From IMG/VR virus record IMGVR_UViG_2541047174_000016: a stretch of DNA of 7,469 bases; one strand, 5' to 3'. This document shows, piece by piece, positions 6,001-7,469 of the stretch; position 1 is the first letter of the stretch, and every line of letters starts with the position of its first letter. Origin of the DNA: a virus. Its lineage: Duplodnaviria; Heunggongvirae; Uroviricota; Caudoviricetes. A program made the position numbers.

Positions 6001-7469
6001 CACACACAGAACACGGTTCATATCCCCCTCACCCCACCAGCCATGACAAAGTTAAGACGCGCCAGGCAGTGGAAAAGCAAATAGCAACCAGCATTAGTGA
6101 AAATGAAATGCCGACGATTACACAGAGGATCTTCGCCAGCGTTATGAGCTTGTCTGACATGCTTAATCCTCTTCACGATTTCAACGCAATGACCAGTTTT
6201 GCCAGCCCATACAGCATCGGAGACACAGCAATACCGACCGCCACCCACTTAATAGCAAAAGCCAGCGCTCTGCTGACGTCATCAGTTACAGGCGCTTTCA
6301 GTTCAAGGCCGTTTTTCATAGTCAATCTCAACAGAATTCGTTTATACTTTCCCATGTTCTCCCTTGCCTTACTCAAGGTCAGAAACACAAAACCCCGTTT
6401 GCGGCCAACAAACGGGGTTTTACTTTTATTCACTTAGTTTTTGCCAGTTCGCAGGATTTCGTGTTATCCGCCAGTGTGAGCAAACCGCATTTTTCAGCAA
6501 AATATTCTGCTTATCTGTCAATTCCCCAGCACGCCAGCGCGCTCTCCTGGTCACGCCGTGAAACCTGACCGTAGCAGTTGTTTGAGCGAATACGGCAGTC
6601 TCTGCCACCGTCCTTAATCCACCAGCGAATCGCCTCACACGCTCCCCTGCGATCGCCTGCATTAAGCCGCTTATAAAACGTCGACGGGAAACACTTACCG
6701 GGGCCAATGTTATAGGGGCAAAATGACGCGATACCTGCTTTTTGTGGCTCGGTCAGTGGAACTTTTATATTACGCTCCACCCATGCCAGCGCCTTATCCC
6801 GTTCGATAGCGTTAACCCGGTCGCATTTTTCCTTCGACAGCTTCATGCCAGGAATCACAGGCTTACCATCCACCCGGGTGGCTCCACGGCAGATGGTCCA
6901 GATACCCGCACCATCACGGTATGCCGTGGTGTGGTTACCTTCCTTTTCATCCAGAAACTGGTCGAGGATTTCAGGCGCAGAAGCACCTGCGGCAATCAGC
7001 GCCAGAACGGCAGCCGACAGGCCGTATCTGATTTTTGCGTTCATGGATATTTATCAGGGTTTATCGATTTCAAATCCCTGGATATGTTAAGTCTTCAGGC
7101 CAGCGGTGGAGTCTTCAGAGAACCCGTAATTATTCCCGGTAGTTTTCCTCTGTAGGTTATCAACACATCCTGCGCCTCTAAAATTACGGGACGCTTTTCC
7201 GGTAACGGACCATCCCCTTCACATAACCCGGCAGCAACATCCATGAAAAACTGCTTCGCCTGCTTTTTCGCCTCAGCTTCGTAAAACTCCAGCGTGGCAC
7301 CTTCAGTACGGTCAAGACTAATCGCCACATCTGGCAACAACAGTGACGGATACCCACCAATTTCCAGTGCCACAGTAACAGTAATCTTATCCGGGTAATT
7401 ATTTATCCCTTTAACAACCAGTTCGTATTTTTTCTTCATCACTTTACTCTCCCCGCGCCGCCTTACGCC

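Follow-up and report, generated by a model that had tools for sequence, protein, structure and literature searches.

What function does a perfectly paired hairpin with T-runs on both strands serve inside the late lysis operon of an E. coli lambdoid prophage? The window (the whole 7,469-nt stretch of DNA analysed here) raises this question at 6389-6421, where a perfect inverted repeat separates the lysozyme gene R from the small ORFs and spanin genes downstream. The annotated genes on the R side and on the mini-ORF side run in the same direction, on the minus strand (hereafter the lysis sense), and no annotated plus-strand gene in the window ends at the hairpin.

The hairpin and its gene context

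The features considered are the following.

5232-5525, plus strand: bor
5532-5557: hairpin at the bor/Rz junction, with a strong stem and T-runs poor or absent
5584-5598: hairpin between bor and the main hairpin, with a weak 5-bp stem
6021-5557, minus strand: Rz
5801-5616, minus strand: Rz1
6160-6029, minus strand: mini-ORF B, a 43-aa hydrophobic protein (phrog_4906), also found after the antirepressor (Ant) gene in Stx phages
6173-6355, minus strand: mini-ORF A, 60 aa, start codon at 6355; CDS WP_001303555 in identical DNA
6356-6388, minus strand: leader of 33 nt separating the hairpin from mini-ORF A; its Shine-Dalgarno sequence is AAGGGAG (6365-6359)
6378-6392, minus strand: U-rich tail of the candidate lysis-sense terminator, UUUUGUGUUUCUGAC (minus-strand reading), whose first four U are the end of the stem
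6389-6421: hairpin overall, 13 bp perfectly paired around a loop of 7 nt, with a T-rich tail on each strand
6389-6401: left arm, AAAACCCCGTTTG (plus strand), a 4-nt A-run and a GC-rich core; arm columns conserved or co-varying in 27 distinct variants
6402-6408: loop, 7 nt, CGGCCAA on the plus strand and UUGGCCG in lysis-sense RNA
6409-6421: right arm, CAAACGGGGTTTT (plus strand)
6418-6431, plus strand: U-rich tail of the candidate plus-strand terminator, UUUUACUUUUAUUC, inside the conserved R flank
6422-6510, minus strand: conserved non-coding 3' flank of R, 89 nt, found together with the hairpin and also ahead of the alternative Ant cassette
7044-6511, minus strand: R, a 177-aa phage lysozyme (PF00959 Phage_lysozyme; phrog_7 endolysin; lysozyme annotation in identical O157:H7 DNA)

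The two arms are 100% complementary across the 7-nt loop, and in lysis-sense RNA two extra pairs could form within the loop, leaving 5 nt unpaired. Past the GC core the plus-strand tail reads TTTTACTTTTATTC and the minus-strand tail TTTTGTGTTTCTGA, the U-tract directly 3' of the lysis-sense stem being UUUUGUGUUUC. The initial annotation had described a perfect 13-bp, GC-cored hairpin with T-tracts on both strands, lying between R and the downstream genes and 33 nt upstream of the mini-ORF A start, and this description is confirmed. Its claim of intrinsic-terminator anatomy on both strands is likewise borne out: a stable GC-rich stem-loop and an adjacent 3' U-rich tract are found on either strand of the window allele. 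The lysis-sense tail has a T-score of 3.65 and an approximate d'Aubenton-Carafa-type score of +8.5; the corresponding values on the plus strand are 3.59 and +0.4.

Chance does not account for the hairpin. No other close inverted repeat in the window is as long, and a perfect 13-bp inverted repeat with a loop of 3-8 nt is expected by chance about 7e-4 times per 7.5 kb (an estimate). A lax search returned eight terminator-like hits, which is the chance level (7.8 in shuffled sequences), and this hairpin was the only one of the eight with more than 8 pairs. The minimum free energies of 66-nt pieces are -18.9 kcal/mol (plus strand) and -21.6 kcal/mol (minus strand), with folding z-scores of about -3.6 on both strands; equally stable folds arose in 1 of 200 shuffles for the plus strand and in 0 of 200 for the minus strand. 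The GC core of the window allele alone is worth -15.3 kcal/mol in the sense direction and -13.5 kcal/mol on the plus strand.

The distance from the R stop codon to the hairpin is 89 nt. An 86-aa ORF nominally spans the hairpin; it was rejected, since the 1-nt A-run indels and the change of loop length (6 or 7 nt) found in relatives would break its frame, and the hairpin is thus non-coding. Between R and Rz, including the R flank, no sense promoter-like site was found, and a leader-attenuator reading was discarded because the R flank holds no sense promoter. An Rfam cmscan of the whole window gave no match at E<=1. Mini-ORF A, the first gene of the variable region behind the hairpin, has a basic N-terminus and a C-terminal hydrophobic helix; it falls in phrog_1115/4493/3246, of unknown function like the PHROGs matched by the other small ORFs, and neither it nor the other small ORFs have a Pfam, NCBIfam or PADLOC match.

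Conservation of the fold and its place in a variable slot

The hairpin is carried by about 120 related prophage loci in three structural versions (a, b and c), in which pairing is kept through double-sided changes. Strand and pairing counts were made on 124 loci, representing 27 distinct variants. Over these variants 95.7% of cells are paired, compared with 34-65% when the partners are slid, and two stem positions vary on both sides, appearing as U-A, A-U, G·U and C-G, although the independent compensatory events are few (about 2-3) and most of the variation is shared descent. Conservation with compensatory changes in related prophages, which the initial annotation had named as a check and which is the pattern expected of a structure maintained by selection, was therefore what we found.

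The two strands are not equally well conserved. In the sense RNA, 18 of the 27 variants (96 of 124 loci) have standard pairs at every one of the 13 stem positions, whereas the same is true of the plus-strand RNA in only 2 variants (15 loci); mean core energies are -13.8 and -10.7 kcal/mol, respectively. The lysis-sense fold is the better conserved one because G·U pairs keep the sense stem where the plus strand has C·A, and a C·A mismatch accounts for most of the 109 loci (of 124) with an incompletely paired plus-strand stem. In this regard, the window allele, perfect on both strands, is a minority allele. Stem mismatches of other kinds occur in alleles of the L020 type (8 loci) and of the L028 type (5 loci, including L032 and L143), and in arm hybrids, whose 5' arm is that of version b and whose 3' arm is that of version a, which leaves an A·A mismatch. 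The loop differs among relatives in sequence and in length (6-7 nt). Versions a and b retain the lysis-sense tail, whereas in version c (12 loci) it is degraded and the sense T-run is lost; the plus-strand T-run is retained in all relatives of this hairpin, version c included.

As for distribution, a 361-nt query running from the mini-ORF A region through the hairpin into the end of R found matches in 2056 of 5426 complete genomes, and a flank-anchor scan of species-representative genomes yielded one further Escherichia locus only, together with two chance matches. The isolated, complete phage genomes PhiR12/PhiR5 carry the hairpin, and the Sakai prophage Sp4 holds a copy at NC_002695.2 1184830-1184854, where the lysis sense is again the minus strand.

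The interval between R and Rz is a hypervariable slot of 1-5 small membrane ORFs, and the hairpin forms its R-proximal edge. The 33-nt leader is partly alignable across cassette families, and an identical hairpin allele is joined to unrelated downstream cassettes, so the hairpin goes with the R flank. Cassette families break immediately after the hairpin; in Ant phages the breakpoint lies immediately before it. The closest backbone relatives of the window are Stx2 phages, which carry an Ant cassette in the slot and not the main hairpin; the hairpin is therefore part of a swappable module and not of the lysis operon as such. The Ant cassette has an unrelated 7-bp hairpin followed by TTGTCATTTCTG at the same position, T-rich on the lysis-sense strand only. 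In K-12 Qin, rrrQ abuts rzpQ, the R-Rz gap is empty and there is no hairpin; K-12 was accordingly rejected as a model. Genes annotated beyond Rz in hairpin-bearing prophages include YlcI/YnfO, PerC and DUF1398, and bor next to Rz is absent from the annotation of all eight relatives examined.

What the sequences show directly is a conserved stem-loop with compensatory changes, a bias of its G·U pairs towards one strand, and a modular setting; termination, read-through by Q-modified polymerase and the antisense RNA discussed below are inferred.

Probable termination and its alternatives

The best and most likely reading is that the hairpin acts as a terminator or insulator for transcription without Q modification, and on balance we consider it probable that it is an intrinsic (Rho-independent) terminator belonging to the 3' flank of R, at the R-proximal edge of the R-Rz slot. 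RNA polymerase lacking Q and proceeding past R on the minus strand would transcribe a stem of 13-15 bp followed by the U-tract and be released, so that neither the small membrane ORFs nor Rz/Rz1 nor the packaging genes would be expressed. Polymerase coming from pR' with Q modification would read through, so that the hairpin would join the mini-ORF A leader. Since the window stem is perfect on both strands, it could end plus-strand transcripts too, most plausibly a short antisense RNA from the promoter-like element discussed below.

Several lines of evidence point in this direction: the perfect 13-bp stem with its GC core and T-rich tails, the conservation with compensatory changes and the better kept sense fold, the linkage of one hairpin allele to unrelated cassettes, its occurrence in isolated phages, the different hairpin that the Ant cassette places at the same site with T-richness in the sense direction only, and the lack of a hairpin in phages without an insertion, such as K-12 Qin. 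Furthermore, the insertion of independently expressed genes (morons) in lambdoid late operons is an established pattern (PMC2629481). Against termination stand the 12 version c loci without a sense-strand T-run and the alleles with stem mismatches. The reading would also require sense transcripts that reach the end of R without antitermination, and some benefit from a stop placed after S and R. No EcOnc peak is reported at the Sakai Sp4 copy, an absence that carries no weight, as the list excluded peaks less than 100 nt from annotated genes.

Two features on the plus strand bear on what else the hairpin might terminate.

6319-6348, plus strand: promoter-like element (motif only), TAGTCA, 18-nt spacer, TATACT, facing the hairpin and lying opposite mini-ORF A codons 3-13
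6354-6430, plus strand: predicted, hypothetical antisense RNA of about 72-77 nt, whose 3' part is the hairpin and the U tail

It is possible, if distinctly less probable than the terminator reading with which it is compatible, that the hairpin serves mainly to terminate a cis-antisense RNA and is shared, convergently, with sense transcripts from the R side. A promoter in the 5' end of the first small ORF would then give an RNA of about 72 nt covering the Shine-Dalgarno sequence and start codon and repressing the ORF in lysogens, by analogy with P22 sar acting on ant or with a type I antitoxin. Equivalent promoter-like elements occur at the same place in three unrelated cassette families (TAGTCA-18-TATACT; TGcTAAAAT, an extended -10; and TGtTATCCT), with the 3' end of the -10 at 87-91 nt from the flank anchor and within codons 2-6. 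A crude scoring puts them among the best 0.1-1.5% when set against random antisense windows, and among the best 0.5-2.4% against 207 gene-start windows; on the same scoring their combined Fisher p is about 2e-4. Ant cassettes have no such element, and their hairpin also lacks a plus-strand T-run, a run that every relative of the main hairpin keeps, including those of version c. The 5' 35 nt of the predicted RNA are complementary to the mini-ORF A leader, Shine-Dalgarno sequence and start codon, and the whole is predicted to fold as a 5' arm plus the terminator (-24.6 kcal/mol, z-score -3.95). The slot products are short hydrophobic proteins, and sar provides a precedent for antisense control of a late-operon insert (PMC2629481). 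On the other hand, the promoter is a motif, in a window that is no richer in promoter-like sites than shuffled sequence (6 against 7.9) and has no Rfam family match; -10-like hexamers are favoured by AT-rich 5' codons; a comparison of synonymous sites offers too little polymorphism to show conservation; and the plus-strand stem is not fully paired in the great majority of loci. More tentative still is a composite scheme drawn from the same motifs, in which each variable small membrane ORF would bring its own antisense promoter and the hairpin would act as the shared convergent terminator. The resulting RNA of about 70 nt would mask the ribosome-binding site in lysogens while the sense side blocks read-through from R, and the small ORFs, as toxic lysis-modulating or exclusion proteins, would be held under a double lock until Q-driven late transcription, in a previously undescribed module.

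Three further explanations were considered. The hairpin could be an mRNA stability or processing element of the Q-antiterminated late transcript, forming a barrier to 3'-to-5' exonuclease after cleavage and stabilising S-R, or a 5' stem for the small-ORF segment, and thereby tuning relative expression. That selection acts on how the sense RNA folds, and not on the symmetry of the DNA, agrees with this idea, as do version c, which keeps the stem without the sense T-run as a pure stem-loop function would allow, and the similar strong hairpin without T-runs at the bor/Rz junction; in E. coli operons such hairpins are an established means of processing and stabilising RNA selectively, according to the accessible text of PMC10667835. 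However, most alleles keep both T-runs, which a pure stabiliser would not need, and we regard this role as unlikely. We give still less weight to the plus-strand function put forward in the initial annotation, that of a backstop ending bor-side transcripts, which in lysogens would run antisense through Rz and the mini-ORFs and be stopped before R and S. The plus-strand hairpin and T-run are intact in the window, bor lies upstream on the plus strand, and the hairpins nearer to it are poor, with a weak T-run in one and a 5-bp stem in the other. Yet those two hairpins are much nearer to bor, the main hairpin is conserved where the genes annotated beyond Rz are other ones, and most relatives have a mismatch in the plus-strand stem; as the origin of a plus-strand transcript, the promoter-like element at 6319-6348 is a better candidate than bor. 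Of the bidirectional role first proposed, then, the minus-strand half fits best, thanks to the G·U pairs, and it is the plus-strand half that the C·A mismatches of most relatives weaken. Least probable of all is that flank and palindrome are a recombination linker only, a homology patch for cassette swaps with no RNA-level function. The breakpoints immediately beside the hairpin and the existence of arm hybrids suggest such a patch, but the double-sided compensatory changes, the one-strand G·U bias and the T-runs would be left unexplained.

Should the hairpin terminate transcription as predicted, the late operon would contain an internal boundary to transcription in a class of E. coli prophage modules that is very common, and the silence in lysogens of fast-evolving tiny membrane genes beside the lysis genes would be explained. 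If the antisense RNA is real, the lysis cassette would have acquired an RNA-controlled small-protein module, which would bear on when lysis occurs, on how stable the prophage is and on the release of toxin in Stx-type phages. If there is no such RNA, the hairpin would be an ordinary terminator at a mosaic junction.

Comparison with known systems

Literature searches turned up nothing specific on ECs1094-1096, on terminators or antisense RNAs of lysis cassettes, or on small membrane proteins between endolysin and spanin genes; the comparison is with better described elements. Prophage sRNAs of pathogenic E. coli (HnrS/EcOnc10-12, AgvB, AsxR, StxS, Pas) are short, terminator-ended RNAs from late regions of the same kinds of prophage (PMC13502914, PMC4104026, 10.64898/2026.05.13.724894), a description that the predicted antisense RNA would share. 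None of the known families compared (AgvB, AsxR, Esr41, STnc100 and others of Rfam 15, and HnrS) matches the window in sequence and structure or lies at this position; HnrS (EcOnc10-12), multicopy and encoded in the late region, was rejected as its identity, mapping after Rz on the opposite strand. For PasA, PasC and PasD1 the description consulted puts the genes, as a rule, immediately beside the holin/lysozyme operon and says nothing of where they stand with respect to R or Rz.

Type I toxin-antitoxin loci (hok/sok, symE/SymR) resemble the arrangement in pairing a short hydrophobic ORF with an antisense RNA, here a predicted one of about 70 nt over the Shine-Dalgarno sequence and start, ending at a strong terminator; additionally, an overlapping 8-codon leader ORF in one relative family recalls mok/hok-like coupling. 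They differ in that no dedicated toxin promoter was found here, toxicity and antisense RNA are hypothetical, and mini-ORF A and the small ORFs show no similarity to known toxin families in Pfam, NCBIfam or PADLOC.

Like morons, the R-Rz slot is a late-operon site of high flux with differing gene sets, an antirepressor being one content, through which late transcription passes, and related phages keep, lack or exchange its genes while the neighbouring genes are conserved. The 'ant moron' of P22-like phages is controlled by the antisense RNA sar over the ribosome-binding site (PMC2629481); the window slot shows no homology to sar or immI. The ant moron lies between genes 16 and 9, whereas the present slot lies between R and Rz and its cargo is small membrane ORFs. 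A moron's own sense promoter and downstream terminator are not found here; the hairpin stands at the upstream edge, and the cargo abuts Rz.

With bidirectional terminators the hairpin shares a symmetric A-run, stem and T-run readable on both strands. Those that have been described separate the two genes of a convergent pair (Ju, Li and Liu 2019, through the summary in PMC13500782). Here, in contrast, the flanking genes are co-directional; the plus-strand side offers only the promoter-like motif that recurs in three families, and the hairpin would have a convergent partner only should the predicted antisense RNA exist. The stem of most relatives, moreover, is perfect on one strand only.

In anatomy the hairpin resembles canonical E. 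coli and lambdoid intrinsic terminators such as tR', which likewise consist of a GC-rich stem-loop and a U-run after a stop codon. tR' is at the start of the late operon and the window hairpin within it, between R and Rz, and no defined RNA is known from the latter. The late-operon terminator tR', downstream of pR', is overridden by Q-modified RNA polymerase (PMC7547250), and the window hairpin would be expected to yield to the same polymerase.

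The hairpin and its setting in the late region

The window is late-region DNA of an E. coli lambdoid prophage; its minus strand (hereafter, lysis-sense) carries the late genes.

Features of the window
7442-7095, minus: DUF1327/YdfR-family gene
7044-6511, minus: R, phage lysozyme (endolysin), 177 aa
6422-6510: non-coding flank of 89 nt between R and the hairpin
6389-6421: the hairpin
33 nt between hairpin and mini-ORF A: leader with AAGGGAG
6355-6173, minus: mini-ORF A, 60 aa
6160-6029, minus: mini-ORF B, 43 aa
6021-5557, minus: Rz
5801-5616, minus: Rz1
5232-5525, plus: bor
remainder of the window: small terminase subunit, large terminase subunit and portal genes

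The hairpin is a perfect inverted repeat of 13 bp (arms AAAACCCCGTTTG / CAAACGGGGTTTT, loop of 7 nt) and the longest close inverted repeat of the window; by our own estimate, about 7e-4 perfect 13-bp short-loop repeats are expected per 7.5 kb. Past the GC core the sequence reads TTTTACTTTTATTC on the plus strand and TTTTGTGTTTCTGA on the minus strand. The minimum free energy is -18.9 kcal/mol (plus) and -21.6 kcal/mol (minus), with a z-score of about -3.6 on each strand, and equally good folding was found in 1 of 200 plus-strand and 0 of 200 minus-strand shuffles. Lax terminator-like hits occur in the window at chance level (eight, against 7.8 in shuffles), and the hairpin is the only one with more than 8 pairs. 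The perfect 13-bp hairpin described in the initial annotation is therefore borne out, with complementary arms, T-rich stretches on both sides and folds that beat shuffles, as is its 33-nt distance from mini-ORF A.

The flank 3' of R (6422-6510) is conserved apart from one variable block, especially 6472-6488, which in relatives is frequently a palindrome (CGTTGGCCAACG, GCGTGGCCACGC) and adjoins the invariant GCGGATAACACGAAATCCTG. The window version of this block, ACTGGCGG, resembles a lambda operator half-site.

An Rfam 15 scan of the whole window gave no match, and our literature search found no paper on the hairpin or on the small ORFs that follow it. HnrS (EcOnc10-12), a multicopy late-region sRNA of EHEC prophages, is a different element, encoded on the other strand beyond Rz. 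PasA, PasC and PasD1 are described as usually sitting right next to the holin/lysozyme operon, their position relative to R or Rz not being stated. StxS lies at tR'. For the hairpin copy of Sakai Sp4 no Hfq-CRAC peak is listed, in a list that left out peaks at 100 nt or less from annotated genes. Separately, 4944-5056 (plus-strand sense, small terminase gene to bor) shows partial homology with the HnrS/EcOnc12 locus of Sakai Sp9 (95.6% over 45 nt and 92% over 26 nt, the central part differing), so that the window may hold, upstream of bor, a variant or a vestige of this sRNA gene.

Conservation of the hairpin at the edge of a swappable slot

Taking the conserved R flank, and not the hairpin, as anchor, we compared about 150 related loci drawn from IMG/VR, metagenomes, E. 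coli genomes and phage records. In almost all of them the hairpin comes immediately after an invariant AAGTGAATAAAAGT, in one of three versions.

Versions of the hairpin
a: CCCCGTTTG[7]CAA(A/G)CGGGG
b: CCCCGATTG[6-7]CAGTCGGGG
c: CCCCGGCTG[6]CAG(T)CCGGGG

In an alignment of 27 distinct variants, 95.7% of cells hold standard pairs, against 34-65% when the partners are slid. Double-sided changes affect two stem positions, the first with U·G, U-A, A-U and G·U, the second with U-A, U·G and C-G. The hairpin thus shows the conservation and compensatory change that the initial annotation had proposed to look for. A coding role for this stretch is ruled out by 1-nt indels in the A-run and loop. Some alleles carry mismatches: C·A in the core in 8 loci (L020 type), G·G in the L028 type, and A·A in hybrids joining a version b 5' arm to a version a 3' arm. 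These hybrids point to recombination inside the hairpin.

One and the same hairpin allele is joined to unrelated downstream cassettes, among them family 1 (KYKRILLRL...), family 2 (DFSKLIREIR...) and a third type (starting MQVKDNNK...). Since the cassette breakpoints fall right after its T-run, the hairpin travels with the R flank. What follows is a hypervariable slot between R and Rz with 1-5 small single-helix membrane ORFs (window 6029-6355, minus strand; related loci L006, L039, L021, L044), whose N- and C-terminal modules are shuffled across loci, as with a ...AFAIKWVAVGIAVSPMLYGLAKLVIALKS tail on different heads. These ORFs fall into several PHROGs without assigned function (1115/4493/3246, 4906, 6632) and have no match in Pfam, NCBIfam or PADLOC. 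In family 1b, which comprises relatives of mini-ORF A (L011 6740-6800, that is Sakai Sp4, and L003), a 26-nt leader insertion gives rise to an upstream ORF of 8 codons, MGREVFSL, with a stop codon overlapping the small ORF's GTG start, and to a short stem over the second Shine-Dalgarno sequence; such an arrangement recalls hok/mok translational coupling.

In phages bearing the antirepressor (Ant) cassette, such as Stx phages and Sakai Sp6 and Sp9, homology with the window ends precisely at the hairpin's 5' edge. At this position the Ant cassette starts with a hairpin of its own, which differs from that of the window: 7 bp, AGGCACC-GTAAT-GGTGCCT, with TTGTCATTTCTG after it and a T-rich tail in the lysis-sense direction only. 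About 190 nt of non-coding sequence separate this hairpin from ant (L002 2400-2440, minus; L021, L008, L009). Where a prophage has nothing inserted, as in Qin of K-12, R abuts Rz and the hairpin is absent. The hairpin module also occurs in the isolated, complete phage genomes PhiR12/PhiR5.

The packaging/bor backbone of the window is of the Stx2-phage type (phage 86, PA2, VT2phi_272), and these phages carry the Ant cassette in place of hairpin and mini-ORF A. Other O157:H7 prophages, with a lambda-like head type, share the hairpin/mini-ORF A cassette at 100% identity. Several O157:H7 chromosomes match 6160-6520 without a difference (100%) and have both mini-ORFs annotated as hypothetical proteins. 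The window is a mosaic of that backbone and this cassette; the exact window occurs as a single piece in none of 5,426 complete E. coli genomes and 50,697 phage records.

Strand use and function of the hairpin

G·U pairs bear on the question of strand, since a G·U pair in one RNA is a C·A mismatch in its complement. The full set of 13 standard pairs forms in the lysis-sense RNA of 18/27 variants (96/124 loci), against only 2/27 variants (15/124 loci) for the plus-strand RNA, and locus-weighted core stability is -13.8 and -10.7 kcal/mol, respectively. Together with the sense-only hairpin of the Ant cassette, this bias favours selection on the sense-strand fold, the direction not being fixed by sequence alone. 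Version c (12 loci), which has lost the sense T-run (TTGCATTTTG) and keeps that of the plus strand, speaks against a role in the sense direction only. An approximate d'Aubenton-Carafa type score, uncalibrated since it uses modern energies, is positive on both strands for the window allele and version b, on the sense strand only for common alleles, and on the plus strand only for version c. The window allele is of a minority type, fully symmetric, and is symmetric enough that it could act in both directions.

On balance, we consider that the hairpin probably acts as an intrinsic terminator or insulator on lysis-sense transcription by polymerase not modified by the late antiterminator Q, at the upstream edge of a swappable late-operon slot; Q-driven late transcription would read through it into the slot genes. 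That it is instead an mRNA stabiliser seems unlikely, and a mere recombination linker very improbable. As to its plus-strand use, the initial annotation looked to transcripts from the bor side, a source that we regard as quite unlikely: two candidate hairpins lie nearer bor, and relatives whose annotation was read have other genes beyond Rz. One of the two, an 11-bp perfect hairpin (5532-5557; GAGTTGCCCAT-CGAT-ATGGGCAACTC) exactly between the convergent stops of bor and Rz, is very stable (about -17 kcal/mol) with poor T-runs on both strands, so that a classical terminator is less probable here than a convergent-gene stem-loop or stabiliser; the other, at 5584-5598, is weak with a good T-run.

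The best plus-strand client, compatible with a sense-strand terminator, is a predicted short RNA antisense to the start of mini-ORF A, which we propose tentatively and from motifs only. A plus-strand promoter-like element at 6319-6348 (TAGTCA, 18-nt spacer, TATACT) faces the hairpin from within codons 3-13 of mini-ORF A. Alone it is not significant, as the window has no excess of promoter-like sites. Three unrelated cassette families, however, have their best antisense promoter-like element in the same position, with 87-91 nt from the 3' end of the -10 to the flank anchor (shifted in family 1b by the leader insertion). Under a crude scoring scheme, these elements fall within the top 0.1-1.5% of random antisense windows of 12 nt and the top 0.5-2.4% of 207 distinct windows at gene starts of these loci (Fisher combination, p ~2e-4). 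Ant cassettes have no comparable antisense element. Polymorphism is too scarce for synonymous sites to bear on conservation of the element.

Possible parallels with known antisense systems

The predicted RNA would run on the plus strand from ~6354-6356 to ~6428 (~72-77 nt), with a 35-nt 5' part that is the complement of mini-ORF A's leader, Shine-Dalgarno sequence and start codon, and with the terminator after it; its predicted fold has -24.6 kcal/mol and a z-score of -3.95. If such an RNA exists, the hairpin would be a genuine convergent terminator, and it would gain in significance as part of a small-protein module under antisense control. In this regard, bidirectional terminators have been described between opposing transcription units (PMC13500782), and in P22 the antisense RNA sar controls ant, a gene inserted in the late operon (PMC2629481). 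The arrangement predicted here would parallel sar/ant as antisense control of a late-operon insert.
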